This document shows positions 2,004-44,633 of a stretch of DNA of 64,000 nt, in pieces. The DNA is taken from positions 14,085 through 78,084 of the forward strand of contig JAVKHN010000006.1 of the NCBI GenBank assembly GCA_031459935.1, given 5' to 3'. How positions within the stretch are numbered: position 1 is the first letter of the stretch; the number at the start of each line of letters is the position of its first letter. The DNA is from Candidatus Sysuimicrobium calidum. GTDB taxonomy: Bacteria; Sysuimicrobiota; Sysuimicrobiia; Sysuimicrobiales; Sysuimicrobiaceae. The translations under genes were made by a program, and so were the position numbers. The notes beneath the pieces are model-generated. The model had not been told where the DNA came from. It did no database searches and was given only the letters and a program-made list of their open reading frames with translations.

Positions 2004-3257
2004 ATGTTCCGGGCGTTTCGCCATCCCGCGTATCGGATGTACTGGCTGGGGATGGCCGTCTCCCAGGTGGGGACGTGGATGCAAGCCACGGCCCAGGCTT
2101 TCTTCGTATACGAGCGGACGGGCTCGGCCCTGCAGACCGGGGTGGTCACCGTTGCCTTCACACTCCCCTCCCTGCTCTTCTCCCTGTTCGGAGGGGCGGT
2201 GGCGGACCGGTACGACCGGCGGCGCCTGTTGCTCCTCACCCAGACGGGCTTCCTCCTCTCCGCAGGGCTGCTGGCGGGCCTCACCTTCGGAGGGTGGGTA
2301 CAGATCTGGCACCTCATGGCCTTCGCGTTCGTGAACGGCTTTCTTATGGCCATGGACGCCCCCGTCCGGCAGGCCATCCTCCCTGCCCTGGTCTCCCGGG
2401 AGGATCTCCAGAACGCCATCGGGCTCAACGCGGCCATGTTCAACGGATCCCGGATTTTCGGCCCCGCCCTGGCGGGTCTCATCTATCAGATGGGCGGGCC
2501 CGGCTGGTGCTTCCTCCTCAATGCCCTCTCCTATCTGGCGGTGATCCTCCCCATGGCCCGGATCCGGGTGGACTCTCAGGTGGATCGCCACTCTCCCCTG
2601 CTGGACCACCTTCTTGGGGGGCTCCGATACGTCCGGGGCCAGCGCGTCGTGCGATCCCTGCTCCTGCTCCTGGCTGCGGTGGGGATGTTCGGGTTCACGT
2701 GGACGGTGCTGAGCCCGGCCTTCACGGTCCGGATCCTGCACGGAGGTCCCCTGGAAAACGGCTATCTTCTCACCGCGGTGGGCGTGGGCAGCACGCTCGG
2801 GGCACTCCGGGTGGCGGGCGGAGGAGCATCCCATCGGCCCGGGCGGTTCGTGCTCACGAGCGCGGCGGCCACGGGAATCTCCCTCCTTGCCTTCTCCACG
2901 ACCCGCCACCTTCTGGCTGCCCTGGCCTGCTTGAGCCTCACGGGGTTCTTCCTGACCTCCTTCATGTCCGCCACGAACTCCACCATCCAGTCCCTGGTGG
3001 AGGATCGGTACCGGGGGCGGGTCATGAGCCTCTATACCCTGGCCCTCATCGGCAGCGGACCGCCGGGAAGCCTCCTGGCGGGATCGCTGGCAGACCTGGT
3101 GGGCGTCCCCGCGAGCCTTGCCCTCAACGGCATCCTGGTGGCGCTCAGCGCCGGGGTGTGTGCGGTGCTTGTGCCGGATCTGGCCCGCCTGGACGGACGG
3201 GTGCTGCTACGTCCGACGGTCCTTCGTTCCGGCGGGGGAGGCGGCTCCGGAGGCTAG
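2004..3257 (+). CDS. MFS transporter (EntS/MFS_3-like)
   Basis: The ATG at 2004 gives MFRAFRHPAYRMYWLGMAVSQVGTWMQ. About 12 hydrophobic segments and a GGAVADRYDRRRLL loop motif. The 5' part of the 734-aa track ORF is a GC artefact. Confidence 0.8.
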   Translation: MFRAFRHPAYRMYWLGMAVSQVGTWMQATAQAFFVYERTGSALQTGVVTVAFTLPSLLFSLFGGAVADRYDRRRLLLLTQTGFLLSAGLLAGLTFGGWVQIWHLMAFAFVNGFLMAMDAPVRQAILPALVSREDLQNAIGLNAAMFNGSRIFGPALAGLIYQMGGPGWCFLLNALSYLAVILPMARIRVDSQVDRHSPLLDHLLGGLRYVRGQRVVRSLLLLLAAVGMFGFTWTVLSPAFTVRILHGGPLENGYLLTAVGVGSTLGALRVAGGGASHRPGRFVLTSAAATGISLLAFSTTRHLLAALACLSLTGFFLTSFMSATNSTIQSLVEDRYRGRVMSLYTLALIGSGPPGSLLAGSLADLVGVPASLALNGILVALSAGVCAVLVPDLARLDGRVLLRPTVLRSGGGGGSGG

Positions 3258-3952
3258 GTCCGGCTCAGGATGATGGCCTGCTTGAGTTCCTGGATGGCCT
3301 TGGTGATCTCGATTCCCTGCGGGCACGCCTCCGTGCAGTTGAACACCGTGCGACACTTGAAGACGCCGCTGCGGTCCGCGAGAATCTGCAGCCGCTGCTG
3401 CGCCGCCTGATCGCGGCTGTCGAAGACGAACCGGTGCGCGGCCACCAGGGCTGCGGGGCCCAGGAACTCCCCCGTTCCCCAGAAGATGGGACAGGCGGTG
3501 GTGCACACCGCGCACAGGATGCACTTGGTGGTGTCCTCGTAGCGGGCGCGTTCCTCCGGGGTCTGCCGGCGCTCCTGGGGCGGAGGGGGTTCGTCGGTAA
3601 TCAGCCACGGCATGACCTGCCGGTACTTCTGGAAGAAGGGCTCCATGTCCACCACGAGGTCCTTGATCACCCGAAGCCCCCGGAGGGGCTCCACGGTGAT
3701 CCGGAGCCCCAGATCCTTGACGAGGACCTTGCAGGCAAGCCGGTTGCGGCCGTTGATGAGCATGGCGTCGGATCCGCAGATCCCGTGGGCACAGGAGCGA
3801 CGCAGAGCCAGGGAACCGTCGATGTTGGCCTTGATGTAGTGGAGGGCGTCCAGCACCCGATCGAAGGGGTCCACGGGAACCTCATACTCCGCCCAATAGG
3901 GCCGCCGGTCCACTTCCGGGTTGTATCGCTTGATGCGGATGATGGCCTTCAT
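3254..3952 (-). CDS. sdhB: succinate dehydrogenase iron-sulfur subunit
   Basis: MKAIIRIKRYNPEVDRRPYWAEYEV start, Cys clusters (CAHGICGSDAM, CILCAVCTTACP, CTEACP), 232 aa. Confidence 0.93.
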   Translation of the reverse strand: MKAIIRIKRYNPEVDRRPYWAEYEVPVDPFDRVLDALHYIKANIDGSLALRRSCAHGICGSDAMLINGRNRLACKVLVKDLGLRITVEPLRGLRVIKDLVVDMEPFFQKYRQVMPWLITDEPPPPQERRQTPEERARYEDTTKCILCAVCTTACPIFWGTGEFLGPAALVAAHRFVFDSRDQAAQQRLQILADRSGVFKCRTVFNCTEACPQGIEITKAIQELKQAIILSRT

Positions 3953-3965
3953 GGACGCCTCCGGC

Positions 3966-5702
<1,737 letters not shown>

Positions 5703-5715
5703 TGCGCATCCCCCT

Positions 5716-6090
5716 TTACTGCCCTGTAAGGGCCCCGGGCTGGAAGGTGAGGAGCACGAGGGATCCCAGAACGGTGAACACCAGACCCACGGACCACAGG
5801 ATCACGTTCCACACGAGACGCCAGCCAGCCGACCGCGTGTAGTCGTACACGATTCCGCGGACCCCCACCAATCCATGGCTGAGGGCGAGGAGCAGGATGA
5901 GCAGATCGTACACCCGCCAGAAGGGGGTGCTGAACCGTTGGGCCACAAACGCGAAGTCGATCCGGTCTGTGCCGGTGAGCACGTGCATGATGTACAGATG
6001 GCCCAGCACGAACCCCAGCAGGAGCACCGCGGAGATCCGTAGGTAGAGCCACCCCAGCCACGCCCAGCCGTTCGCGCGCGCGCCCGTCAT
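5716..6090 (-). CDS. sdhD: succinate dehydrogenase membrane anchor subunit
   Basis: The internal ATG at 6090 gives a 124-aa, 3-TM protein ([31 protein letters not shown]) between sdhC and sdhA. The rest of the 247-aa track ORF overlaps sdhC in another frame. Confidence 0.75.
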
Positions 6091-6101
6091 GTCCTCTCCT
6101 C

Positions 6102-6452
6102 CTACGGGAAGATGGGCCGGAGCATGAGCACCGCCACGGGCAGCATCACCACCGTATACAGAGCCGCTCCCACCCAGAACATGCGACGGTAGGACCGGGT
6201 GGCCCGGGGGAAGAGGTCCAGGATCATCACCAGGATCCCGTTGCCCGCGTGGTACACCACCGCCGCCACCAGGAGGAACTCCAGAGGCTTGAACCAGGGC
6301 TGCTTGTAGAGCGCGAGGGCGCGGTTGTAGGCTTCCGCCCCATAGAGGAGCATGAAGGTCTCCAGGATGTGGAGCAGGAGGAACACGAGGACCGCCACGC
6401 CCGTGATCCGGTGCAGGGCCCAAGCCAGCATCCCGGGGCCACCTCGGTACAT
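6102..6452 (-). CDS. sdhC: succinate dehydrogenase cytochrome b subunit
   Basis: 116-aa, 3-TM protein with the HRITGVAVLVFLLLH heme-ligand-type motif, at the first position of sdhCDAB. Confidence 0.8.
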   Translation of the reverse strand: MYRGGPGMLAWALHRITGVAVLVFLLLHILETFMLLYGAEAYNRALALYKQPWFKPLEFLLVAAVVYHAGNGILVMILDLFPRATRSYRRMFWVGAALYTVVMLPVAVLMLRPIFP

Positions 6453-6462
6453 CCGCCACCTC

Positions 6463-7161
6463 CTAGGTCCCTTGCTCGATCTCCTGGCGCATATCGTCCA
6501 TGTGCCGCTCCATGGCCTCCCACGCAGCCTGCTCGTCCCGCCGCTGGAGGGCCTCCAGGATCGCCTCGTGGAACCGGTGAGCCTTCTGGGGACTGCCGGG
6601 GGCCCGACCCGCGGCTTCCCGGCTCAGCAGCCACATCTCCGACAGCGTACGCACCAGGGAGGCGAGCACGGGGTTGCGGGTAGCCTCCGCCAGCTGCTCG
6701 TGGAACCGGAGGTCCCCCTCCAGGTCCCGCCGACCCCCGGCCAGTTCCGCGGCCCGGCGCTCCACCAGCTCCTGCAGCTGCTCCACATCTTCCACGGTGG
6801 CCCTCCGTACCGCCAGAACCACCACCTCCCGCTCCACGATCCGCCGGGCCTCCAGGAGATCCAGGAGGAACGTGCGCTCGGAGAGGCGACTCCAGACCGC
6901 AGGATCCACGGGAGCGGGGGGCTCCCGGACAAAGGTGCCATCCCCGGAGCGGACCTCCACGAGCCCCAGGGCGGCTAGGACCCGCAGGGCTTCCCGCACG
7001 GAGGCTCGGCTCACGTTCAGCAGCTCTGCCAGTTCCCGCTCGCTGGGAAGCCGGTCCCCCGGCTGGAGGTGCCGTTCGGCCACCAGTTCCTGGATCTGGT
7101 GCACAATGGCCTCGTAGAGCCGGCGGGGGCGGATGGGCTGGAAGAGGGATGCGCGATTCAT
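6463..7161 (-). CDS. GntR/FadR-family transcriptional regulator (FCD domain)
   Basis: LPSERELAELLNVSRASVREALRVLAALGLVEVRSGDGTFV HTH plus a helical FCD-like C-terminal domain. The ATG at 7161 is preferred over the TTG at 7188. The gene lies 10 nt upstream of sdhC. Confidence 0.85.
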   Translation of the reverse strand: MNRASLFQPIRPRRLYEAIVHQIQELVAERHLQPGDRLPSERELAELLNVSRASVREALRVLAALGLVEVRSGDGTFVREPPAPVDPAVWSRLSERTFLLDLLEARRIVEREVVVLAVRRATVEDVEQLQELVERRAAELAGGRRDLEGDLRFHEQLAEATRNPVLASLVRTLSEMWLLSREAAGRAPGSPQKAHRFHEAILEALQRRDEQAAWEAMERHMDDMRQEIEQGT

Positions 7162-7176
7162 GGTCTGGTGGCCTAG

Positions 7177-7187
7177 TGGTCTGACCA
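7177..7187. promoter_or_regulatory. FadR/GntR-type palindromic operator candidate TGGTCTGACCA
   Basis: Perfect TGGTC-T-GACCA inverted repeat. It lies 16 nt upstream of the regulator ATG and 73 nt upstream of icd, and matches the TGGTnnnACCA core of FadR-subfamily boxes. Confidence 0.5.
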
Positions 7188-7259
7188 ATCTTTATGCTAT
7201 TCTCAAGACGGGCCTGCGTCAATCGGTCCCTGAGGGCATTATGATCACAGGGGTTAGGC

Positions 7260-8504
7260 ATGCTGCAGCTTGAGCGTTTCTCCCCACCAAAGGAAGGTCA
7301 GCGCATCCAGGTTCAGGACGGACAGCTCGTGGTCCCCGATTTCCCCATCATCCCCTTCATCGAGGGGGACGGGATCGGCCCCGACATCTGGCGGGCCACC
7401 CGGCGGGTCGTGGATGCCGCGGTGGAGAAGGCGTACGGAGGGCGACGGCGGATCGCCTGGTACGAGGTGTACGCGGGTGAAAAGGCCTACCGGGAATTCG
7501 GGGACTGGCTTCCCGCGGATACCCTCCGGGCCTTCGAGTACTGCTATGTGGGGATCAAGGGCCCCCTCACCACGCCCGTGGGCGGAGGATATCGGTCGCT
7601 GAACGTGGCCCTCCGGCAGCTGCTGGATCTGTACGCCTGTGTGCGACCCGTGCGGTGGTTCGAGGGCGTTCCCGCACCCATCCGACACCCCGAGCGGGTG
7701 AACATGGTGGTCTTCCGGGAGAACACCGAGGATCTGTACACCGGGATCGAGTGGCCTGCGGGTTCCCCGGAAGCGAACCGGATCATCGAGTGGCTGCGGG
7801 GGGAGTTCGGCGTGGAGATCCGGCCGGGCTCTGCCATCGGCATCAAACCCATGAGCCCCTTCGGCAGCAAGCGCTTGGTGCGGAAGGCCATCCGGTATGC
7901 TCTGAACCGCAGGCGGCGCAACGTCACCCTCGTTCACAAAGGGAACATCATGAAGTACACGGAGGGCGGGTTCCGGGAGTGGGGGTATCAGGTGGCGAAA
8001 GAGGAGTTCGGGGATCAAACGGTCACCTGGGAGGAGGTGCAGACCCGATACGGCGGGAAGGTCCCGGAAGGGAAGCTCCTGATTCAGGATTTCATGGCGG
8101 ACGTCACCTTCCAGCACATCGTCATCCGGCCCCAGGACATTGACGTCATCGCCACGGGAAACCTGAACGGAGACTACCTCTCGGACGCCATCGCCGCCCT
8201 GGTGGGTGGCATCGGGATGGCTCCGGGGGCCAACATCGGAGACTTCCACGCGGTGTTCGAGGCGACCCATGGCACCGCCCCCAAATACGCGGGGCAGGAC
8301 AAGGTAAACCCCACCTCCCTGCTGTTGTCCGCGGTCATGATGCTGGAGTACCTGGGCTGGCAGGAGGCCGCGGACCTCATCGTCAGGGGACTGGAGACAA
8401 CCTTCCGGAAGAAGGTGGTGACCTATGACCTTGCGCGCCTCATGGAGGGGGCCCGAGAGGTGCGCACCAGTGAGTTCGCTACGGAAGTGATCAACAACCT
8501 CTAG
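7260..8504 (+). CDS. icd: NADP-dependent isocitrate dehydrogenase
   Basis: [44 protein letters not shown] and [11 protein letters not shown] motifs, 414 aa. Confidence 0.95.
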
Positions 8505-8514
8505 GAGGCGGATC

Positions 8515-9450
8515 ATGGCGCGGGGGCGGCCCAAGATCTCCGTCGTGGGGGCGGGGGCGGTGGGGACGGCTGCGGCCCAATGGATGGCCGCGCGAGAGCT
8601 GGGGGACATCGTCCTCGTGGACATCATCGAAGGGCTGCCGCAGGGCAGGGCCCTGGACCTCCAGCACGCGGGTCCCATCGCGGGGTTCGATGTGGGGATC
8701 ACAGGGTCTAACGACTACGCGGCCACCGCGGGCTCCGACGTGGTGGTGGTCACCGCAGGGGTTCCCCGCAAGCCCGGGATGACGCGGGAGCAGCTGGTGG
8801 ATACCAATGCGGGGATCGTGCGCAGCATCATGCAGGAGGTGGTCCCGCGCTCCCCGGAGGCAGTGTACGTGATCGTCACCAATCCGCTGGACGCCATGAC
8901 GTACATCGCCTACCGCGCCTCTGGGCTCCCTCGGGTTCGGGTCATCGGGCAGAGCGGGGCCCTGGACACCACCCGGTTTCGGGCCTTCCTGGCTGCGGAA
9001 CTGGGCGTGTCCATTCAGGACGTGCAGGCCCTGGTGATCGGGGCCCACACGGACAAGGACATGGTGCCCGTGGCCTCCCTTGCGAACGTACGGGGGATTC
9101 CGGTCACGCGGCTCCTGCCGCGGGAACGGCTGGAGACGGTGGTGGCCCGTACCCGACGGGCGGGGGCGGAGATCACAGAGCTCATGAAGCAGAGTGCCTT
9201 CACCGCCCCCGGGGCCGCCATCTGTGAGATGGTGGAGGCCATTCTCCGGGATCGCAAGCGTCTCATCCCGTGCTCCGTATACCTGGAGGGGGAGTATGGG
9301 GAACGGGACGTGTGCGTAGGCGTGCCGGTGATTCTCGGAGCCGGAGGGGTGGAGCGCATTGTGGAACTGCCCCTCTCGGAGGAGGAGTGGGCGATGTTCC
9401 GGGCGAGCTGTGCCGCGGTGCGGGAGCTGGTGGGAGCCGTACAGGTATGA
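8515..9450 (+). CDS. mdh: malate dehydrogenase (LDH-like MDH family)
   Basis: KISVVGAGAVGTAAA Rossmann fold, VVVTAGVPRKPGMTREQL with the MDH-type Arg, GAHTD catalytic block, 311 aa. Confidence 0.93.
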   Translation: MARGRPKISVVGAGAVGTAAAQWMAARELGDIVLVDIIEGLPQGRALDLQHAGPIAGFDVGITGSNDYAATAGSDVVVVTAGVPRKPGMTREQLVDTNAGIVRSIMQEVVPRSPEAVYVIVTNPLDAMTYIAYRASGLPRVRVIGQSGALDTTRFRAFLAAELGVSIQDVQALVIGAHTDKDMVPVASLANVRGIPVTRLLPRERLETVVARTRRAGAEITELMKQSAFTAPGAAICEMVEAILRDRKRLIPCSVYLEGEYGERDVCVGVPVILGAGGVERIVELPLSEEEWAMFRASCAAVRELVGAVQV

Positions 9451-10553
9451 AGCTCCACGAGTACCAGGCCAAGCAGCTGTTCCGGACCTACGGCATCCCC
9501 GTCCAGCGGGATGCGGTGATTGAGCATCCGGAGGAGATCCCGGGATTGTCCCTGCGCTACCCCCTGGTGCTGAAGGCTCAGGTCCTGGTGGGCGGCCGTG
9601 GCAAGGCGGGAGGAATCCAGCTGGCCCGGACCCCGGAAGAGGCGGTGGAGCGGGCCCGAGCCATTCTCGGCATGGAGATCCGGGGGGAGCGGGTTCGCAG
9701 GGTCTTGGTGGCGGAGGCCGTGGAAATCGAGCAGGAGCACTACCTTGCCTTCACCGTGGATCGATCCGCACGACGCCTCGTCTTCGTGGCTTCGAGCATG
9801 GGCGGGGTGGACATCGAGGAGATCGCCCGCACCCATCCGGAGCTGGTGCACAAGGTGGTCCTGGACCCTCTGGAGGGTTTCCTGCCCTTCCAGGCGCGGC
9901 AGGTGGCGCGGCGCATGGGATTGCGGGGGGAATCCCTCGTCCAGTTTGCCCAAATCGCCCATGCCCTCTACCGCGTGTGTGTGGACCTGGACGCGGAGCT
10001 GGTGGAGATCAACCCACTTGCCCGGGCGGAGGGGAAGCTGGTGGCCGTGGATGCCAAGGTGGTGGTGGACGAAAACGCCCGCTTCCGGCACCCGGACCTC
10101 CCCGAGGACGAGGAGGCCACGGAGCTGGAGCGGATGGCCCGACGCTACGACCTCTCCTACGTGGAGCTCTCTGGGGACATCGCCGTCATCGGGAACGGAG
10201 CCGGGCTCGTGATGTCCACCCTGGACATGGTGGCCCACTTCGGGGGCCGACCCGCGAACTTCCTGGACGTGGGAGGCGGAGCCAGCAGCGAGGCCATGCG
10301 GCACGCGGTAGACATCGTGCTCCGCAAGCCCGGGGTGCGGGTCCTGTTCATCAACATCTTCGGAGGCATCACCCGGTGCGATGACATCGCCCGCGGCATC
10401 GTCGCCGCCCGCCCCGCGGTTCCCACCATCATCCGGCTCGTGGGCACCAACGAGGAGGAGGGGCGCCGGATCCTGGAGGAGGCGGGGATGGCCGCCTTTG
10501 TGGATCCCGAGGAGGCGGCCCGGCACGCGGTGGCTTCCGCGCGGAGGTCGTAG
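9447..10553 (+). CDS. sucC: succinyl-CoA synthetase beta subunit
   Basis: The ATG at 9447 overlaps the mdh stop (ATGA). MKLHEYQAKQLFRTYGIPV ATP-grasp start and the GNGAGLVMSTLD motif. Confidence 0.93.
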   Translation: MKLHEYQAKQLFRTYGIPVQRDAVIEHPEEIPGLSLRYPLVLKAQVLVGGRGKAGGIQLARTPEEAVERARAILGMEIRGERVRRVLVAEAVEIEQEHYLAFTVDRSARRLVFVASSMGGVDIEEIARTHPELVHKVVLDPLEGFLPFQARQVARRMGLRGESLVQFAQIAHALYRVCVDLDAELVEINPLARAEGKLVAVDAKVVVDENARFRHPDLPEDEEATELERMARRYDLSYVELSGDIAVIGNGAGLVMSTLDMVAHFGGRPANFLDVGGGASSEAMRHAVDIVLRKPGVRVLFINIFGGITRCDDIARGIVAARPAVPTIIRLVGTNEEEGRRILEEAGMAAFVDPEEAARHAVASARRS

Positions 10554-11438
10554 ATGAGCATCCTCGTGGACGAAACCACCCGGGTCCTGGTGCAGGGAAT
10601 TACAGGCTACCAGGGCGCCTTCCACACGGCCCGCATGCTGGAGTTCGGGACCCGGGTCGTGGCAGGTGTCACACCCGGGAGGGGGGGGGAGTGGGTGCAC
10701 GGGGTTCCCGTCTTCGACACGGTGGAGGAGGCGGTCCAGGCCACGGGGGCTACCGCCAGCTGCGTGTTCGTGCCCGCCCGGTTCGCCTCCGACGCGGTAC
10801 TAGAGGCCGTGGAGGCCGGATTGAGTCCCATCGTGGTGATCACGGAGCACATCCCGGTGCACGACGCCATCCGGATGGTGGAGGCGGCCCGACGCCGGGG
10901 GGTCCACATTATCGGCCCCAACTGTCCCGGAGTCACCTCCGCGGGCAAGTGCAAGATCGGGATCATGCCGAACCACCTCTTCCGGCCCGGACCCGTGGGC
11001 CTCGCCTCCCGCTCGGGAACCCTCACCTACGAGATCGTGGCCTCCCTCACCCGGGCGGGGATCGGACAGTCCACTGCGGTGGGCATGGGGGGGGATCCCG
11101 TGATCGGCACGACTTTCGTGGAGCTGTTGGAAGCCTTCGGGCAGGATCCTCAGACAGAGGTGGTGGTGCTCGTGGGCGAGATCGGAGGAGCCGCGGAGGA
11201 GGAGGCCGCGGCGTATATTCGGGACTTCGTGCGCAAACCCGTGGTGGCGTACGTGGCTGGACGGACTGCTCCTCCCGGCAAGCGCATGGGGCATGCGGGG
11301 GCGGTGATCTCCGGCAGCGAGGGAACGGCCCAGGCGAAGATCGAGGCCCTGCAGGCCGCGGGCGTGGCGGTGGCGGAGCTCCCGTCCCAGGTGGCCTCCC
11401 TGGTAGCCCGGATCCTCGCCGGACGGCCCGTGGGGTGA
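10554..11438 (+). CDS. sucD: succinyl-CoA synthetase alpha subunit
   Basis: [38 protein letters not shown] and [10 protein letters not shown] (phospho-His) motifs. Confidence 0.95.
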
Positions 11439-34220: not shown

Positions 34221-34439
34221 ATGCACGCCGCGATCCTGATCCTGCACTTCCTCCTCGTGGCCCTGGCCGTGGGACTCGTGCTCCTGCAGGGACCGAAGGG
34301 CGAGGGCCTGGGTGCCATCGGGGGATCTGCACGTCTGTTTCACGGACCCAGGCCACGGGAGACCTTCTTCACCCGCACCACGGCCATCGTCTCCGTCCTG
34401 TTCGCCCTGAGCTCCATCTACCTCGCCTTCGTCCGGTAG
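34221..34439 (+). CDS. secG: preprotein translocase subunit SecG
   Basis: 72 aa, two TM helices, with the [15 protein letters not shown] motif. Confidence 0.85.
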
Positions 34440-34481
34440 GCTATAATGGAGGACGGCCCGGCCCCCTCGCCGGGTGGGCGT

Positions 34482-34566
34482 GCCCGGATGGCGGAACTGG
34501 CAGACGCGCACGTTTGAGGGGCGTGTGGGGAAACCCGTGGGGGTTCGAATCCCCCTCCGGGCACCA
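34482..34566 (+). tRNA. tRNA-Leu (anticodon GAG)
   Basis: Hand-folded cloverleaf. Acceptor GCCCGGA/TCCGGGC, anticodon arm CACGT-TTGAGGG-GCGTG, long variable arm, T arm GGGGG-TTCGAAT-CCCCC, encoded CCA. Confidence 0.9.
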
Positions 34567-34632
34567 TGGTTTCCCTAGGTACAATGGTGGCATGAGCCTA
34601 TCTCGCGAGGGACGAGGGGGAGGGGGATAGGA

Positions 34633-34983
34633 ATGAGCACACTCGCGGAGCTGAAGTGTACCGCCTGCCGGGGGGATGAGCTTCCCCTCACGGACGCGGA
34701 GATCGTCGCCCTTCTGCCCCAGGTTCCGGAATGGCGAGTGGTGGAGCGGGAGGGGGTGAAGCGGCTGGAGCGGACCTTCAAGTTCCGGAACTTCCAGGAG
34801 GCTCTGGCATTTGCAAACCGCGTGGGGGAGCTTGCGGAGGAGGAAGGCCATCACCCCGCCCTCCTGGTGGAGTGGGGGCGGGTCACCGTGAGCTGGTGGA
34901 CCCACAAGATCCGGGGGCTGCACCGCAACGACTTCATCATGGCCGCGAAGACGGACGCTGCATACCGGGAGAGGGCGTCCTGA
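34633..34983 (+). CDS. 4a-hydroxytetrahydrobiopterin dehydratase (PCD/DCoH family)
   Basis: [43 protein letters not shown] is the family signature. 116 aa. Confidence 0.88.
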
Positions 34984-35035
34984 CGCCCCCAGGCGCCTTC
35001 AAGAGCTCCGGTGGACTCGGCTGCAGGAGCGGGGG

Positions 35036-37767
35036 ATGTGCCAGCAGTTCTCCGGATTAAACGCTGGGTACGTAGCCGAGCTCTACGAGCGGTACCGGCA
35101 CGATCCCGCCTCCGTGGACGCGCAGACCCGGGCGTTCTTCGAGCAGCTTCCGCCCGCTCCAGATGGGGTGCTTCTCACCCTGGATTCCCGGGTTCTTGCG
35201 GGCGCCATCGGCCTCGCGCAGGCCATCCGGGTGTACGGACACCTCGCGGCGCGCCTCGACCCCCTGGGAACACCACCGCCGGGGGACCCCTCCCTGAGCC
35301 CCGAGTCCTGGGACGTCACGGGAGAAGACCTCCGGCATCTCCCGTCCGAACTCGTCGGGGGACCGATGGTCAAGCGGGCCCGCAATGCCCTTGAGGCCCT
35401 TGCGCTCCTGCGGACCATCTATTCGGGGGCGGCGGGCTACGAATTCGATCACCTGCGCGTGGCTGAGGAGCGGATCTGGCTTCGAGAGGCGGTGGAGGGT
35501 GGGTGTTTCCGACCTCCTCAAGATCCCCTTGATGAGGTGGCCCTCCTTCACCGCCTCACCGAGGTGGAGACCTTCGAGCGGTTCCTGCACCGCACCTTTC
35601 CGGGAAAGACCCGGTTCTCCATCAAGGGGCTCGACATTCTGGTTCCCATGCTGGACGAAGTGATTGTTCTCGGGCCACGGAGGCGGGCGCGCGCACCCTC
35701 CTCCTGGGGATGGCCCACCGCGGCCGGCTCAACGTACTTGCCCATATCCTGGGCAAGCCCTACCGCGCAATCCTCGCGGAGTTCAAGGATCCGGTACGTA
35801 GCCGGGCCTTCCGGGACGACCTCGGATGGACCGGGGATGTGACCTACCACAGGGGTGCCCAGCGTGTCGCCCCGGGGGCCACCGTTCTTCTAGCGCCCAA
35901 TCCCAGCCATCCGGAGGCAATCGCGCCGGTGGTCGAGGGGATGGCCCGGGCCGCGGGGACCCGCGCGAACCGGCGCGGGGCCCCGGTGTGCGGTCCGGAC
36001 GTGGTCCTGCCCGTCCTCATCCACGGGGACGCCGCCTTCTGCGGACAGGGGGTTGTGGCAGAGACCCTGAATCTCGCCCAGGTCCCCGGGTACGCCACGG
36101 GCGGTGCGATCCACCTCATCGCCAACAACCAGCTGGGCTACACCACGGATCCCCGAGAGGGACGGAGTACCACGTACGCGAGCGACCTTGCCAAAGGGTT
36201 CGAGACCCCTGTGGTGCACGTGAACGCGGACGACCCGGAGGCATGCATCGCCGCCGCCCGGCTCGCGGTGGCCTACCGCATGCGCTACCACAGGGACTTC
36301 GTGATCGACGTCGTGGGCTACCGTCGGTGGGGACACAATGAGGGGGACGAGCCCGGCTTCACCCAGCCCGTGCAGTACCGCCGCATCGAGTCCCATCCGA
36401 CCGTCCGGGCCTGGTGGGCTTCCCGGCTGGTGGAACAGGGCGTCGTGGACCCGCACGCCCCCGACCAGCTCGTCCAGGAGCACCTGCAGCGCCTGCAGGC
36501 GGAGCTGAGCGCCCTTAACTCCGAGCGGGACCTCGTGGAGGAGCTCCCCGCGCCACCCCCTCCGGGCGCTGCCCGCCAGGTGTGGACCGCGGTACCGTTG
36601 GGGCGCCTGCAGCAGCTGTACGAGGCGCTGCTGCGGGTGCCGGAGGGGTTCTCCCTGCATCCCAAGCTGGCCCGGGCCCTGGAGCGCCGGCGCACCCTGC
36701 TGGCGGACCCGGATGCGCCCACCGTGGACTGGGCGGGTGCGGAGCAGCTAGCGTTCGCATCCCTTCTCGAAGAAGGGATCCCGATCCGCCTTGTAGGGCA
36801 GGACACGGAGCGAGGTACCTTCAGCCAGCGGCACGCAGTCTTCCACGACCTCAAGACCGGTGCCAAGCACATTCCCCTACAGACGCCGCCGCAGGCGCGC
36901 GCGGCCTTCGAGGTGCACAACACACCCCTCTCCGAGGGTGCGGTGCTGGCCTTCGAGTACGGGTACAGCATCCAGGACCAGGGCCACCTGGTCCTCTGGG
37001 AAGCGCAGTATGGGGACTTCCTCAACAATGCCCAGGTGGTGGTGGACGAATTCATCGTTTCCGCCCGCGCCAAGTGGGGACAGCTGCCTTCCCTTGTTCT
37101 CCTCCTTCCGCACGGGTACGAGGGGCAGGGACCCGACCACAGCAGCGCCCGGCCGGAGCGGTTCTTGCAGTTGAGCGCGGATCTCAACCTGCGGCTTGCC
37201 TACCCCACCACTGCCGCCCAGTACTTCCACCTCCTGCGCCGGCAGGCCTTGCTGCTGCGGACCGATCCCCTTCCTCTCGTCGTGCTTACCCCGAAGAGCC
37301 TGCTGCGTCACCCAGCTACCTTTTCCTGTCCCCGGGATCTCAGCGAGGGCAACTGGCAGCCGGTGATGGACGACGGCGCGGATCCCCAACGGGTGCGGCG
37401 CCTCCTCCTGTGCACGGGCAAGGTCTTCGTGGATCTCGTGACGGGCGTCCGCAAAGACCAGGAGGTCACCGTCGTGCGGCTGGAGCAGCTTTATCCGTTT
37501 CCGGAAGAGGAGCTCACGGCCCTCTTGGAGCGGTACCGGGGAGCGGAGGAGGTGGCCTGGGTGCAGGAGGAGCCGCAGAACATGGGAACCTGGAGCTTCG
37601 TGCGGCCGATCCTGGAAACCCTATTGGACGGCCGTCCCCTCCGGTACGTGGGGCGGCCATCCAGCGCGAGCCCCGCGGAGGGGTCCGCGGCCCTGCACGC
37701 GGTGGTGCAGGAAGGGATCCTCGCGGCGGCCCCGGGAGTCCACGACGCCCCTGGGGCGAGGAGGTGA
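35036..37767 (+). pseudogene. sucA: 2-oxoglutarate dehydrogenase E1 component, interrupted by a 1-nt frameshift
   Basis: The N-terminal ORF (35036-, FLHRTFPGKTRFSIKGLDILVPMLDEVIVLG) and the C-terminal ORF (to 37767, upstream frame reads RATEAGARTLLLGMAHRGRLNVLAHILGKPY) are contiguous parts of one E1o. The frames join at the G-run 35672-35674. Adding one G restores LDEVIVLGATEAGARTLLLGMAHRGRLN. Confidence 0.85.
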
Positions 37768-37770
37768 GAG

Positions 37771-38946
37771 GTGGCAGAACTCTTGGTCCCGCAGATGGGA
37801 GAATCCGTCCTGGAGGCCACCGTGGCTCGGTGACTCAAGCGGGAGGGCGAGCAGGTGGAGGTAGGCGAGGCGGTGGTGGAACTGGAGACCGAGAAAGTGA
37901 ACGCGGAGGTGGGCGCGGAGGTAGAAGGGGTGCTCGCCCGGATCGTGCACCGGGAAGGGGAGACCGTCCGGCCCGGAGAGGTGCTGGGGGTGATCGAGCC
38001 GATCCCCGCCTCCGCTCCGGCGCCCTCCTCTGCGAAGGCCCCGCAGCCGCGGGCAGCCGAGCCTTCTCCGACCCCGCCCGGGCTGGAAGCCCCGACACCA
38101 CGCGCCACGCCCATCGCCCGTCAGCTGGCCGCAGAACGCAACCTGGACCTCTTTCGGATCTCCGGTACGGGCCCGGCAGGCAGCATCACCCGAGAGGACG
38201 TGGAAGCCGCGCTCGCCGCTCAACAGCCGGCTCCCGCCGTGGAGCGGCCGCGGGCGCTGGAGCGTCGCGAGGGGCGGGTCCAGATGTCCGCGCGCCGGCG
38301 CACCATCGCCCGCCGCCTGGTGGAGGCCCAGCGGGAGGCGGCCATGCTCACCACCTTCAACGAGGTGGACATGACAGAGCTGCTGGCCCTCCGCGGGCGG
38401 CTCACCCCTCAGGGGCCGCGTCTGGGGATCACCGCTTTCTTCGTGAAGGCCGTGACCCCGGCTTTGCGAGAGTTCCCCCGCCTCAACGCGGAGGTCCAGG
38501 GCGAGGAGATGGTCCTGAAGTACTATTACGATATCGGGGTAGCGGTGGGAGACCCGGAGGGGCTGGCGGTCCCGGTGGTGCGGGACGCGGATCGCAAAAA
38601 CCTCCTGGAGATCGAGCGAGAGATCCAGGCCTATGCGGAGAAGGCGGCACAGGGGCGGCTCACCCTGGCGGACCTGCGGGGTGGAACCTTCGCCATCACC
38701 AACGGCGGGGTGTTCGGCTCCCTCCTCAGCACGCCCATCCTCAACCCGCCGCGGGTGGGAATTCTGGGGCTGCACCGGATCGGGGAGCGCCCCGTGGCCC
38801 TTGGGGGGCAGGTGGTGGTGCGCCCCATGATGTACGTGGCCCTCACCTACGACCACCGCATCGTAGACGGCCGGGAGGCGGTGCAGTTCCTGGGGCGAGT
38901 GAAGGAGCTCGTGGAGAACCCGGACCTGCTGCTGGCCTCACTCTGA
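37771..38946 (+). pseudogene. sucB: 2-oxoglutarate dehydrogenase E2 (dihydrolipoyllysine succinyltransferase) with an in-frame TGA
   Basis: From GTG 37771 the frame reads [45 protein letters not shown]. The stop (37831-37833) sits where lipoyl domains have a conserved Trp (TGG). The rest is intact, including the E3-binding and catalytic domains with the DHRIVDG motif. Confidence 0.8.
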
Positions 38947-39112
38947 GACGGCTCCCAGCAGGTCCGGAGCTCACCGGATAGACCCGTTCGATTCGTAGGA
39001 TAGCGGCGTTTGATTTTTCGAGACCGCAAAACCCGTGCTACGCTTGGTTTGGCGCGGGTGTGGGAGGCGCGCGGTACCCGTGGCGGAAGCACAGGAGGTG
39101 TATGGAGGAACC

Positions 39113-41002
39113 ATGAGCGGACAGACGAACCGGGTGAAGATCCTGGTAGGGGGAGTGCAGCTACGGGACGGGGTGTCCACCGTCACGGAGATCCTTGGCC
39201 GCATCTTCACCCGCGCGGGACTTTTCGCGGTGGCCATGGAGCGGGGGTACGCCTCCACCATCTACGGGGCCCACCAGTACGATCCCATGCTGGTCACGGA
39301 GGAGCCTCCCCTCTCGTACGGAGACCCCATCTACGATATCCTCACAGCCCTGGATTACGATAGCAACCCCGACGCGCCCGAGCAGCCGAACCGGGACACG
39401 GTGTTACGGCACGGCACACACCTGCGGGACGGAGGGATCCTCCTGTACGACTCCTCCACGGGAGAGATCCCCACCGATTCCTTCGAGGCGCGGGGCGTGA
39501 AGGTCTTCCCCGTTCCCGCCCGCAAGATCGCCCTGGGGGAACTGAAGCGGGAGATCGTGAAGAACATCGTGATGACGGGAGCCCTGTTCCGGCTGCTGGG
39601 CTTCGATGAGGATTTCACCCATCTGCGCCAGCTCATCGAGGAGCGGTTCGGGCGGAAGGGGCGGGACGTAGTGGAGCTCAACCTGCGGGCCGCCCAGCGC
39701 GGTCGCGAGGCGGTGGAGCGGGTACTGGCGGATCGAGCCTACACCCTGGATTTACGCCTGGAGCCGAGGCCCCGTGGACGTCGGGCGGTGTACATCTCCG
39801 GCAACGACTGCCTGGGAATCGGTGCCATCCAGGGAGGCGTGCGGTTCTACGCAGGCTATCCCATCACGCCCGCAAGCGGCATCCTGGAGTTCATGGAGCG
39901 GTGGCTCCCGCGCTACGGTGGCCGTGTCCTGCAGGGGCAGAACGAGCGGGAATCCATCCGCGCGGCCATCGGCGCTGCGCTCGCGGGGGTGCGGGCGATG
40001 GTGGGGAGCTCCGGTCCCGGCCTCTCCCTCAAGGTGGAGGAGTTCGGGGTGATCGGCGCTACGGAGACGCCCGTGATCATTGTGGACGCGCAGCGAGCAG
40101 GGCCGTCCACGGGCATGCCCACCCGGCCCGAGCAGGGGGACCTGAACCTAGTGATCGGCGGGGCCCACGGGGACATTCCCCGCATCGTGCTGGCCCCCTC
40201 CACGGTGGAGGAGTGCTACACCCTGATGCTGGAGGCGGCTGAACTCGCGGACAAATACCAGTGTCCGGTTTTCTTCCTCACGGACCTCAACCTCTCGGAG
40301 GGCCGGAAGACGGTGCCGGAGGACCTGTTCGCCCAGAGTCCCCCCATCCGGCGACATGGCATCCTGCGGGAGCAAGAGGTGCAGAGGCGACCCTATCGGC
40401 GGTATGAGGTGACGCCTTCCGGAATCTCACCCCGGATCCTTCCCGGCACCCCGGGGGCCGTCTTCAAGTCCTCGGGGGTGGAGCACGACGAGTTCGGGTT
40501 CGTCACCATCGACCCGCGCAAGCGCGCGGCGCAGATGGAAAAGCGCATGCGGAAGCTGGAGACCTACCTGCGGGAGGACGCAAAGCCCCCCTACGTCTTC
40601 GGGGAGACCCGCGGGAATCCCGTGATGGTGGGGTGGGGCCATACGCGGCCCGTGCTCCAGGAGGCCCGGGAGATCCTCCTCCGGCGCGGGATCCCCGTGG
40701 CCCTGGTGCACTTCACCCACGTCTATCCGCTGCCGAAGCACCTGGTGGAACCCCTGTTCGCGGACGCGGGGCCCGTGGTGGTGGTGGAGCAGAACTACAG
40801 CGGGCAGTTCGCGGATCTGTTGCAGCGGGAGCTCCTGATCCGGACACGCCGGGTGCTGAAGTACAACGGAGTTCCCCTCTCGCCAACGGAGGTGGCGGAC
40901 GCGGTGCAGAGGGCGCTCCAGCAGGAAGGCGCGGTGGTACGGATCGGAAGCGAGGCGCCCGTGAGGGTGGAGGTGGGCTGGGATGGACTCGAAGGGAATT
41001 AA
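39113..41002 (+). CDS. korA: 2-oxoacid:ferredoxin oxidoreductase alpha subunit (gamma-alpha fusion)
   Basis: ATG after GGAGGA. N-terminal gamma-type domain and an alpha domain with GNDCLGIGAIQGGVRFYAGYPITPAS. About 629 aa. Confidence 0.88.
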   Translation: MSGQTNRVKILVGGVQLRDGVSTVTEILGRIFTRAGLFAVAMERGYASTIYGAHQYDPMLVTEEPPLSYGDPIYDILTALDYDSNPDAPEQPNRDTVLRHGTHLRDGGILLYDSSTGEIPTDSFEARGVKVFPVPARKIALGELKREIVKNIVMTGALFRLLGFDEDFTHLRQLIEERFGRKGRDVVELNLRAAQRGREAVERVLADRAYTLDLRLEPRPRGRRAVYISGNDCLGIGAIQGGVRFYAGYPITPASGILEFMERWLPRYGGRVLQGQNERESIRAAIGAALAGVRAMVGSSGPGLSLKVEEFGVIGATETPVIIVDAQRAGPSTGMPTRPEQGDLNLVIGGAHGDIPRIVLAPSTVEECYTLMLEAAELADKYQCPVFFLTDLNLSEGRKTVPEDLFAQSPPIRRHGILREQEVQRRPYRRYEVTPSGISPRILPGTPGAVFKSSGVEHDEFGFVTIDPRKRAAQMEKRMRKLETYLREDAKPPYVFGETRGNPVMVGWGHTRPVLQEAREILLRRGIPVALVHFTHVYPLPKHLVEPLFADAGPVVVVEQNYSGQFADLLQRELLIRTRRVLKYNGVPLSPTEVADAVQRALQQEGAVVRIGSEAPVRVEVGWDGLEGN

Positions 41003-41843
41003 GCTCTGGGAGGAGAACGCGGTCCCCAAGCACCGCATCCAGTGGTGCCCCGGGTGCGGGGACTTCGGGGTCCTGGCGGCCCTCAAGCAGGCGCTGGTGG
41101 AGCTGGAGATCATGCCGCACGAGCTGGTGCTCGTGGGCGGGATCGGCTGCAGCGGCAACATCCGAAACTATCTCAACGGCAACGCCTTCCACGGAACCCA
41201 CGGGGGGCCCCTGGCCTACGCGCTCGGGATCAAGATGGCGAACCCCGAGCTGAAGGTAATCTGCCTTGCAGGGGACGGGGACACCTTTGCCATCGGCGTG
41301 GAGAACTTCGTGCACACCTGCCGCCGGGATCCAGACATGGTGCTGCTCGTGATGAACAACGGGGTATACGGCCTCACCAAGGGCCAGGACTCCCCCACCG
41401 CGGGGCTGGGCCAGACCGTGGAGGTGTGGAGCGAGGAACACCCGCCCATGGTGGACCCCGTGCTCCTGGCCCTGGCGAGCGAGGCCACCTTTGTGGCGCA
41501 GTCCTTCAGCGGGGACGTAAAGCACACGGCCCGGATGATCGTGGAAGCCTTCCAGCATCCGGGATTCGCCTTCATCAACGATTTCTCCCCTTGCGTCACC
41601 TACAACAAGTTCAACACCTACGAGTGGTTCCGGGAGCACGTGGAGTACGTTCCCGAGGATCACGACCCCTCCGACAAGAACGCGGCCTGGCGACTCGTGC
41701 GGGACTTCGCCCGTCATGGCAAGCTTCCACTGGGCGTAATCTACCGGAACCCGCGGCCACATCGAGAGACCCACCGCCTCCCCCTGTGGGAGGAGGAGCT
41801 TCGGGATGCGGACGTGGAGCCGATTCTGGCGACCTTCCGGTAG
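40983..41843 (+). CDS. korB: 2-oxoacid:ferredoxin oxidoreductase beta subunit (TPP-binding)
   Basis: WCPGCGDFGVLAALKQAL, GGIGCSGN, AGDGDTFAIG, MNNGVYGLTKGQ. Overlaps the korA end by 20 nt. Confidence 0.9.
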   Translation: MDSKGIKLWEENAVPKHRIQWCPGCGDFGVLAALKQALVELEIMPHELVLVGGIGCSGNIRNYLNGNAFHGTHGGPLAYALGIKMANPELKVICLAGDGDTFAIGVENFVHTCRRDPDMVLLVMNNGVYGLTKGQDSPTAGLGQTVEVWSEEHPPMVDPVLLALASEATFVAQSFSGDVKHTARMIVEAFQHPGFAFINDFSPCVTYNKFNTYEWFREHVEYVPEDHDPSDKNAAWRLVRDFARHGKLPLGVIYRNPRPHRETHRLPLWEEELRDADVEPILATFR

Positions 41844-42662: not shown

Positions 42663-44633
42663 GTGTCGGACCGGTTCTACATCACCACCGCCATCGACTA
42701 CGTGAACGCGAGTCCGCACATCGGGCACGCGTACGAGAAGATCCTGGCGGATGTGCTCGCCCGCTACCGCCGGCTCATGGGCGAGGAGGTCTACTTCCTC
42801 ACGGGGACGGACGAGCACGGACAGAAGATCGCCACCGCGGCCGCGGAGGCGGGCCGGGAGGTCCAGGCATTCGTGGACGAGAACGCGGCACGGTTCCGGG
42901 ACCTCTGCACGGCCCTCAACCTCTCCAACGACGACTTCATCCGCACCACAGACCGCGTCCGCCACTGGCCTGCGGTACACGAGCTCTGGCGCCGGGTGGC
43001 AGCCCGGGGAGATCTCTACCGGAAGCACTACCGGGCCCTATACTGCGTGCAGTGCGAGGCCTTCGTGACGTTGAGCGAACTCGAAGATGGCCGATGCCCC
43101 CGCCACCTCATAGAGCCCCAGGTGATCGAGGAGGAGAACTACTTCTTCCGGCTCTCCCGCTACCGCCACCAGCTGCGCCGCCTGTTTGAGGAGCGGCCGG
43201 ACTTCGTCTTTCCCCCCTCCCGGGCCGCGGAGATGCACAACCTCATCGACACCCTGGAGGACATCTCCGTCTCCCGGCCGGTGGAGAAGCTGCGGTGGGG
43301 GATCCCCGTTCCGGACGACCCTACCCACGTGATCTACGTGTGGTTCGATGCTCTCACCAACTACCTGAGCGCCGTCGGGTTCGCCCGGGACGAAGAGCGC
43401 TTCCGGACTTGGTGGCCCGCCCACCACCTCATCGGCAAGGACATCAACCGGTTCCACTCCCTCCTCTGGCCTGCCATGCTGCTCAGCGCCGGGGTTGAGC
43501 CCCCGCGGCAGGTCCTGGTGCACGGGTTCCTCACCGTGGAGGGGCAGAAGATCAGCAAAACCCTCGGTAACGTCATCGACCCCCTGGCGGTGGCCCGAGA
43601 GCTGGCGGAACGGAGCGGGGGGGAGGTGGACGTGTGCGTGGACGCCCTGCGCTACTTCCTCCTCCGGGAGATCCCCTTCGGGGAGGACGGGGACTTCAGC
43701 CGTACGCAGCTGGTGCACCGGTTCAACGCGGACCTCGCGAACGACTACGGGAACCTCCTCAACCGCACCCTGCCCCTGGTGGAACGCTACTGCGAAGGGA
43801 TGGTTCCGGAAGCCGGGTCGGAGGAGGGGGCGGACGCGGCCCTGCGGCAGACCGCGCAGACCCTGGCGGACACCGTCCTTGCGCACGTGCGCCGGTATGA
43901 TTTCCCCCGGGCCTTGGGCGCCATCTGGCAGCTGTTGGGAGCCGCGAACCGGTACCTGGACCAGGAAGCCCCCTGGAGCCTGTACCGGGCGGGCCGGAGG
44001 GAGCGGGTGGCTACGGTCCTCCGCAACACCCTGGAGGCCCTGCGGGTGGTCACCGTGCTCCTGGAGCCCGTAATGCCCTCCGCCACCCTGAAGGTCTGGT
44101 CCCAGCTGGGATACCCCGAGTTCGAGCAGCGGGCGAGCGAGATCCGGGCGCGGGGGGAGCCATACCGGGGAACGGGGCTGCGCACGGAGGATGCCCGGGA
44201 GTGGCGGTGGCTACGACCCGGAACCCGCGTGCGTCCTGGGCCTCCCGTCTTTCCCCGCATCGAGGCCCGCATTCAGACGCCTGTCGCTTCGGAGGAACCG
44301 AAGATGGCGGAGGTGGTTTCCATCGAGGAGTTCCGGAAGCTGGACCTGCGGGTGGCCAAGGTGCTGGAGGCCGAGCGGGTGCCGGGCACGGACAAGCTCA
44401 TCCGGGCCCGGGTGGACCTGGGGGATGAAGTCCGCACCATCGTCGCGGGGTTGCTCCCTCATTACACGCCCGAGGACCTGGTGGGCAGGACCATCGTGGT
44501 GGTGGCGAACCTCGAGCCGCGCCGGGTGCGGGGTGTGGAGTCGCGGGGGATGTTGCTCGCCGCGGAGTGGGAGGGGAAGATCACGCTTGTGACCCTCGAT
44601 CGGGAGCTTCCACCGGGAGCACGGGTAACGTGA
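42663..44633 (+). CDS. metG: methionine--tRNA ligase with a C-terminal tRNA-binding (EMAP/Trbp111-like) domain
   Basis: GTG start after GAGGAGG. FYITTAIDYVNASPHIGHAYEKI (HIGH), KISKTLGN (KMSKS), C-terminal LDLRVAKVLEAERVPGTDKLIRARVDLG. Confidence 0.93.
   Translation: MSDRFYITTAIDYVNASPHIGHAYEKILADVLARYRRLMGEEVYFLTGTDEHGQKIATAAAEAGREVQAFVDENAARFRDLCTALNLSNDDFIRTTDRVRHWPAVHELWRRVAARGDLYRKHYRALYCVQCEAFVTLSELEDGRCPRHLIEPQVIEEENYFFRLSRYRHQLRRLFEERPDFVFPPSRAAEMHNLIDTLEDISVSRPVEKLRWGIPVPDDPTHVIYVWFDALTNYLSAVGFARDEERFRTWWPAHHLIGKDINRFHSLLWPAMLLSAGVEPPRQVLVHGFLTVEGQKISKTLGNVIDPLAVARELAERSGGEVDVCVDALRYFLLREIPFGEDGDFSRTQLVHRFNADLANDYGNLLNRTLPLVERYCEGMVPEAGSEEGADAALRQTAQTLADTVLAHVRRYDFPRALGAIWQLLGAANRYLDQEAPWSLYRAGRRERVATVLRNTLEALRVVTVLLEPVMPSATLKVWSQLGYPEFEQRASEIRARGEPYRGTGLRTEDAREWRWLRPGTRVRPGPPVFPRIEARIQTPVASEEPKMAEVVSIEEFRKLDLRVAKVLEAERVPGTDKLIRARVDLGDEVRTIVAGLLPHYTPEDLVGRTIVVVANLEPRRVRGVESRGMLLAAEWEGKITLVTLDRELPPGARVT

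Follow-up and report, generated by a model that had tools for sequence, protein, structure and literature searches.

Organization of the sucAB-korAB locus

The window analysed in this work, a 64-kb stretch of DNA (G000:C56:14085-78084), comes from Candidatus Sysuimicrobium calidum (genome G000), a hot-spring metagenome-assembled genome. It carries between pcd (34633-34983) and metG (42663-44633) four genes of the + strand, namely sucA, sucB, korA and korB. The first two correspond to the E1o and E2o components of the NAD-linked 2-oxoglutarate dehydrogenase (OGDH), and the last two to a two-subunit 2-oxoacid:ferredoxin oxidoreductase, which would act as a 2-oxoglutarate:ferredoxin oxidoreductase (KOR). 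A preliminary description of this stretch had noted that sucAB carries two different disruptions and that korAB is intact, and both observations hold, exact to the nucleotide, in the comparison with G002, which together with G001 represents the sister species of G000 in the same genus (g1). The features of the locus are as follows:

35036-37767, + strand: sucA pseudogene (2-oxoglutarate dehydrogenase E1o); N-terminal part at 35036-35665 and C-terminal part at 35671-37767, in different frames
35624-35626, + strand: AAG codon of sucA, resulting in E197K in the RFS[LI]EG motif, at a column 100% conserved in 119 homologues
35666-35673, + strand: frameshift site of sucA, 8 nt in G000 (GTTCTCGG) versus 6 nt in G002 (GCGCGG), net +2
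37771-38946, + strand: sucB pseudogene (E2o dihydrolipoyllysine succinyltransferase), from GTG to TGA; Pfam PF00364, PF02817 and PF00198
37831-37833, + strand: in-frame TGA at sucB codon 21, replacing a conserved tryptophan codon (TGG) of the lipoyl domain
38974-39112, + strand: conserved korA leader (alignment of G000, G001 and G002)
39113-41002, + strand: korA, alpha subunit (fused gamma-alpha type) of the two-subunit 2-oxoacid:ferredoxin oxidoreductase, intact; TIGR03710, score 527.1 versus cut-off 482.75
40983-41843, + strand: korB, beta (thiamine pyrophosphate-binding) subunit, intact; TIGR02177, score 283.6 versus cut-off 261.9

The four domains of an E1o (2-oxogl_dehyd_N, E1_dh, Transket_pyr and OxoGdeHyase_C) appear in sucA in the correct order, but distributed over two frames: the N-terminal domain (PF16078) is found in the open reading frame at 35036-35842, and the other three (PF00676, PF02779 and PF16870) in that at 35710-37767. 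With a net gain of 2 nt, the single frame of ca. 910-940 codons expected of an E1o is not present, the N-terminal part comprising 210 codons and the C-terminal part 699. The latter is 87-88% identical to SucA of G002, which is intact (909 amino acids), and a nucleotide alignment of both genomes identified a 2-nt insertion at ca. 35667 as the sole indel within sucAB whose length is not a multiple of 3. The length of this stretch is constant in the 12 homologues printed from an alignment of 121 sequences, and the shift falls in the thiamine pyrophosphate (TPP) domain of E1o. A single-base slip in a G-run was considered as the origin of the frameshift and is ruled out by the net +2 in a context with no homopolymer. 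Like E197K, the change F417Y affects a column that is 100% conserved in the 119 homologues, and these two are among six columns of at least 95% conservation at which only G000 departs, versus three at which only G002 does.

The lipoyl, E3-binding and catalytic domains are all detected in sucB, whose product is ca. 84% identical to SucB of G002 (393 amino acids) and keeps the DHRxxDG motif. The frame is interrupted within the lipoyl domain, by a TGA codon at the position at which G002 has tryptophan (ATVARWLKREGE). Exactly 166 nt past the sucB stop, korA starts at ATG 39113 behind a good Shine-Dalgarno sequence (GGAGGA) and overlaps korB, both frames being open.

Both lesion sites are covered by independently assembled Logan contigs from three samples belonging to two studies, with 0 differences and 0 gaps. 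These contigs are record 6 of X1 (a possible source run), records 9 and 13 of X4 (another sample of the same study), and records 17 and 20 of X6 (a run of a different study). The lesions are thus verified in independent data, and a close relative has an intact orthologue in the corresponding position, as expected of pseudogenes. In the metatranscriptome run X9, 0 reads were found on the stretch, in a search that covered only ca. 3% of the run. A second 480-nt contig, recovered in X4 and also in X6, covers positions 36720-37199 of the window with 47 differences (ca. 90% identity), which indicates that a related sucA-bearing species or strain inhabits the same springs.

Three states of the operon within the genus

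The integrity of sucAB was compared across relatives, and three states were found in the genus: the operon is intact in situ in G002, carries the two lesions in G000, and is deleted in G001 except for a 97-nt relic of sucA. Two further features are needed to describe the latter:

34633-34983, + strand: pcd (4a-hydroxytetrahydrobiopterin dehydratase), conserved upstream neighbour; NF002016, 175 bits versus cut-off 133; adjoins korA in G001 and in the neighbouring genus g2
35871-35967, + strand: sucA segment that survives as the 97-nt relic in G001 (blastn of the G001 spacer)

The scores of the G002 proteins, encoded at the syntenic site, exceed the equivalog cut-offs (1059.6 versus 764 for SucA with NF006914/TIGR00239; 502.8 versus 449 for SucB with NF004309). 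In turn, G001 matches the window to position 34988 and again from 38974, lacking 34989-38973, so that the deletion starts just past pcd and ends exactly at the upstream edge of the korA leader, which is retained directly after it. The relic is located in a 114-nt spacer and carries a 2-nt gap; its identity is 77% with G000 (E 4e-17) and 80% with G002 (E 2e-20). Together, these matches indicate that G001 once had sucA and that the operon was removed by at least two deletions.

Over 38.7 kb, the identity is 88.9% between G000 and G001, 87.6% between G000 and G002, and 86.8% between G001 and G002. The korAB tree has the topology ((G000,G001),G002) with a bootstrap of 81 and a very short stem, and the shared derived sites are tied (6/6/6). 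G000 and G001 are probably sisters. Since sucAB of G000 still looks largely constrained, its inactivation probably took place after the split of G000 and G001, and would then be independent of the loss in G001.

The dN/dS values (ratio of nonsynonymous to synonymous substitution rates) between G000 and G002 are 0.22 for sucA and 0.19 for sucB, versus 0.097 for korA and 0.093 for korB, that is, korAB is under stronger purifying selection, in line with the decay of sucAB that the preliminary description had proposed. Using the intact SucA sequence P0005 as outgroup (77% identical to SucA of G002), 53 unique changes were counted in SucA of G000 versus 33 in that of G002 (p 0.04). The SucB counts, restricted to positions that six outgroups conserve, were 12 versus 5. 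The pooled counts for SucAB are 65 versus 38 (binomial p 0.01), and those of the KorAB control 12 versus 12. The dN/dS values and the mild excess of own amino-acid changes in G000, E197K included, would point to a short period of neutral evolution and to a recent inactivation; by our rough arithmetic, this period would amount to ca. a tenth of the branch.

A second decaying gene was observed in G000, a merA-like gene (mercuric reductase) at C71:2362-3419 (L043:1501-2558), and therefore sucAB is not the sole case in this genome. It contains frame changes and two in-frame TGA codons, and its N-terminal flavin adenine dinucleotide (FAD) motif and the C-terminal tail (...LSCCAE) are in different frames. 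Two further copies exist: one, on contig C60, is an intact MerA, and the third is partial, being cut by the end of C71.

Distribution of KOR and OGDH in the phylum

The titles of related records place these genomes in the phylum CSP1-3/Sysuimicrobiota, the genus of G000 adjoining Candidatus Tepidifontimicrobium. Among the relatives are records entitled Candidatus Tepidifontimicrobium thermophilum, "Candidatus Sysuimicrobiota bacterium", HRbin32 and "Armatimonadetes bacterium CSP1-3", and genomes of this phylum are often labelled Armatimonadota at NCBI. All 31 genomes searched gave a KorA orthologue, with 57-92% identity in 28 of them, ca. 40% in G017 and G022, and 41% in G026, where the match is partial. 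The next matches, from outside the phylum, fall to ca. 40%. On the other hand, an E1o was found in just 8 of the phylum's 94 genomes: G000 and G002 in this genus, two genomes of family f5 that belong to different genera, and four of the seven genomes of one genus of family f4. No E1o was found by the family model in G001, G003, G004, G005 or G008. Both tallies include the unpublished genome G023 (KorA present, sucA absent), on which no conclusion hangs. Because KorA is found in every genome searched and E1o in so few, KOR is the constant partner and OGDH the sporadic, dispensable one.

In the SucA tree, the clade of this genus (G000, G002 and P0005) has the f4 clade as its sister, with a support of 0.978. 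Since the tree joins the genus to another family of the same phylum, it indicates that sucA has either long been part of the phylum or moved between its members, and was not recently imported from outside. A recent acquisition of sucAB from another phylum had been suggested by the flat identity (60-66%) to sequences of many phyla, and was rejected on the basis of this tree. A metagenome scan on conserved motifs gave relatives of no more than 66% identity among the matches listed. The f5 sequences (L048 and L049, from G047 and G051) fall outside the clade formed by g1 and f4, among sequences of other phyla, and may have a separate origin by transfer.

Among the genomes checked, it is only in this genus that sucAB is located directly upstream of korAB. 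In genus g2, pcd is the immediate neighbour of korA and nothing of sucAB is seen there; no relics of sucA or sucB were detected in the pcd-korA spacers at E < 1e-3. In the g2 loci L022, L025, L026, L028 and L029, pcd is divergent from korA, on the opposite strand, with spacers of ca. 180-700 nt, while in the genus of G000 both genes are co-oriented; the difference in sucAB content was accompanied by an inversion.

The korAB genes and their leader

KorAB of G000 passes the subfamily models TIGR03710 and TIGR02177. The closest solved structures are 6N2N chain A for KorA (286 bits), and 5B46_B and 6N2N_B for KorB (199 bits). The entry 6N2N/6N2O, listed under a generic name, is the 2-oxoglutarate-specific oxidoreductase of Magnetococcus marinus, and 5B46 is a two-subunit 2-oxoacid:ferredoxin oxidoreductase with a broad substrate range. 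A specificity of KorAB for 2-oxoglutarate would be suggested, indirectly, by the similarity of KorA to 6N2N and by the adjacency to sucAB in this genus.

The GGATAG motif occurs twice in the korA leader, which also has a T-rich stretch (TTGATTTTTCGAG) and is strongly conserved in G000, G001 and G002. The leader probably serves korAB as a promoter or operator of its own. A scan of positions 34400-39300 for consensus promoters and terminators rendered nothing above chance.

Search for a second E1o and location of lpd

Only one E1o locus was found in G000, with no second E1o gene in the draft (2.14 Mb, 94% complete). Four further E2-type genes are present, which belong to other 2-oxoacid dehydrogenase complexes.

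The preliminary description had also pointed to the absence of lpd after sucB. The gene is indeed absent there, but this is no sign of decay, because the intact operon of G002 lacks it as well and the site of lpd in G000 lies in an assembly gap. A true Lpd (ca. 530-550 bits with TIGR01350) is encoded in G001, G002, G004, G047 and G081, the relatives having it outside the sucAB operon, and the G002 site corresponds to the break between contigs C55 and C70 of G000. A loss of lpd in G000 was considered and rejected, the best match to TIGR01350 in this genome being MerA, below the cut-off, and the true site being in the gap. The region G002:C12:112000-151999 (L061 and L062) carries lpd and a 2-oxoacid dehydrogenase operon, and is represented in G000 by four small contigs (C16, C55, C70 and C20), with ca. 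6 kb missing, lpd included.

Genomic context

The draft of G000 has a G+C content of ca. 68%. The window is collinear with G002 and G001, and the comparison with them revealed no further real gene broken in its 64 kb; the remaining flagged open reading frames are either shadow frames on the antisense strand or genes extended spuriously upstream. A cluster of tricarboxylic acid (TCA) cycle genes is found at 3254-11438, all of them intact: sdhB and sdhA (forward type), a gene for a GntR-family regulator, icd (NADP), mdh, sucC and sucD. Since sucAB and korAB follow ca. 25 kb downstream, a single contig carries much of the cycle. Citrate synthase is present in G000, at a contig edge. A complex I without NuoEFG was considered as a possible respiratory acceptor for ferredoxin. 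The sole NuoF-like match is a 74-residue fragment at the start of a contig (G000:C47:4-225), and NuoD is encoded on C22.

Probable recurrent loss of a redundant OGDH

Taking these results together, we consider it likely that sucA and sucB of G000 are true, young pseudogenes that reflect the recurrent loss of a redundant OGDH, and not its replacement by KOR. The lineage would have inherited two enzymes converting 2-oxoglutarate to succinyl-CoA, KorAB and the NAD-linked OGDH (SucAB with an Lpd encoded elsewhere), of which the latter would already have been lost by most of the phylum and the former kept in every genome searched for it. With sucAB directly upstream of a korAB that has its own conserved leader, redundancy would have relaxed the selection on sucAB. 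G000 would then have gained the +2 frameshift in the E1o TPP domain and the Trp-to-stop change in the E2o lipoyl domain, and G001 would have deleted the operon stepwise. Once OGDH was dead, KorAB would be the sole recognised route from 2-oxoglutarate to succinyl-CoA (no search was made for others, such as a 2-oxoglutarate decarboxylase or a gamma-aminobutyrate shunt), the remaining TCA genes being intact in the window (icd, mdh, sucC, sucD, sdhA and sdhB). KorAB would pass electrons to ferredoxin instead of NAD, so that the redox output of the step would be reduced ferredoxin and not NADH, and the step would be reversible.

Several observations weigh against this explanation. The dN/dS values of sucAB are far below 1 and inside the range seen across the window (0.02-0.25 for 28 genes or parts of genes), so that relaxed selection is only mildly visible, and the excess of changes in SucAB does not differ significantly from the KorAB control, in which the counts are small (Fisher p 0.25). 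The independence of the two losses depends on a sister relation of G000 and G001 that has only moderate support. The equivalog models for KorAB are all below their cut-offs, so that 2-oxoglutarate is only its putative substrate, and a second oxoacid oxidoreductase alpha subunit is encoded on contig C29 of G000. Finally, the Logan contigs are consensus sequences, and a minority intact allele could exist in the population.

The preliminary description had proposed that the locus captures an adaptive switch, in which KOR replaces OGDH and an NAD-linked step of the TCA cycle becomes ferredoxin-linked. The contiguity of a broken OGDH and an intact KOR, and the tighter constraint on korAB, would be expected in that case, but KorAB is ancestral, to judge from its presence in all 31 genomes searched, and korAB keeps its conserved leader and occupies the same place in relatives that never show sucAB. 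Moreover, sucAB of other families is not adjacent to korAB. What is observed is one of two coexisting enzymes being dropped, as in most of the phylum, and a switch is therefore unlikely.

It could also be the case that the lesions are real but polymorphic, intact alleles persisting in the population, so that OGDH would be a dispensable trait rather than a fixed loss. Rare variants are dropped from contigs and the pseudogenes are young, which would fit such a polymorphism; however, the identical lesions are the consensus in the three samples of two studies, at a depth of ca. 6-20, with neither site showing a listed alternative base or indel, which makes this explanation quite improbable. There is only a slim chance that sucAB is functional through recoding (UGA read as tryptophan or selenocysteine, or ribosomal frameshifting) or as split subunits with re-initiation. 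Long open stretches do remain in both frames, with possible restarts at ATG 35710 and GTG 37855, but sucA and sucB themselves end in TGA as a normal stop, the +2 shift lies inside the TPP-binding domain, and a restart at 37855 would lose the first 28 residues of the lipoyl domain (the Pfam match starts at profile position 28). In addition, an invariant glutamate is also lost, and the operon is wholly deleted in the sister species G001. Lastly, although G000 is a draft of 73 contigs from a metagenome, an assembly or sequencing artefact is very unlikely, indeed close to negligible, because the lesions, neither of them in a long homopolymer, are reproduced exactly by a different assembler in the independent samples and the other genes of the window are intact, as the preliminary description had already reasoned from the latter.

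The loss of a redundant enzyme is a clean and unsurprising case in evolutionary terms, its value residing in the series of three stages (intact, pseudogene and relic) within one genus. As regards metabolism, a "complete TCA cycle" has been reported for the phylum, with no distinction between OGDH and KOR in the main text (PMC11604079). The 2-oxoglutarate step is probably ferredoxin-linked in most members, which would alter what metabolic models of Sysuimicrobiota predict for the cycle in terms of redox carriers, sensitivity to oxygen and reversibility, and an annotation based on domains would wrongly score OGDH as present in G000. A more speculative reading, which we regard as doubtful, is that the sucAB-korAB tandem of G002-like species constitutes an alternative pair, with OGDH used under oxic and KOR under low-oxygen or reductive conditions, and that G000 and G001 independently committed to the ferredoxin-linked enzyme in a hot-spring niche of lower oxygen. 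If so, the three species would form a natural series on what makes OGDH dispensable in a respiring bacterium.

Comparison with known systems

A search of the literature found no matching report of an OGDH pseudogene beside KOR. In Mycobacterium tuberculosis, KOR (Rv2454c/Rv2455c) completes an oxidative TCA cycle (PMC2773412). That organism respires oxygen, and its KOR is likewise a two-subunit ferredoxin-linked enzyme; korAB of G000 is found together with a forward-type sdhA and an otherwise complete TCA set. The mycobacterial enzyme is the nearest precedent in function. In the system predicted here, however, a classical SucAB coexisted with KOR and decays. The enzymes 6N2N/6N2O and 5B46 share with KorAB the alpha-beta architecture with no delta ferredoxin subunit, but they are distant from it, and specificity for 2-oxoglutarate is not readable from them.

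With canonical sucAB(-lpd) operons (NF006914/TIGR00239, TIGR01347), the locus has in common that the E1o and E2o domains follow the same order, that sucA adjoins sucB, and that E2o carries the catalytic DHRxxDG motif. It differs from them in that both frames are interrupted, in that lpd is missing even from the operon of G002, and in its location directly upstream of korAB. Gene loss through redundancy, by way of pseudogenes, deletions and relics, occurs in many bacterial lineages, and the intact operon, the young pseudogene and the near-complete deletion at one syntenic site follow the same course. The case of G000 thus adds a new example to a known type of event, would not surprise a specialist, and differs from the others not in kind but in its setting, a free-living thermophile of an uncultured phylum instead of a host-restricted bacterium.

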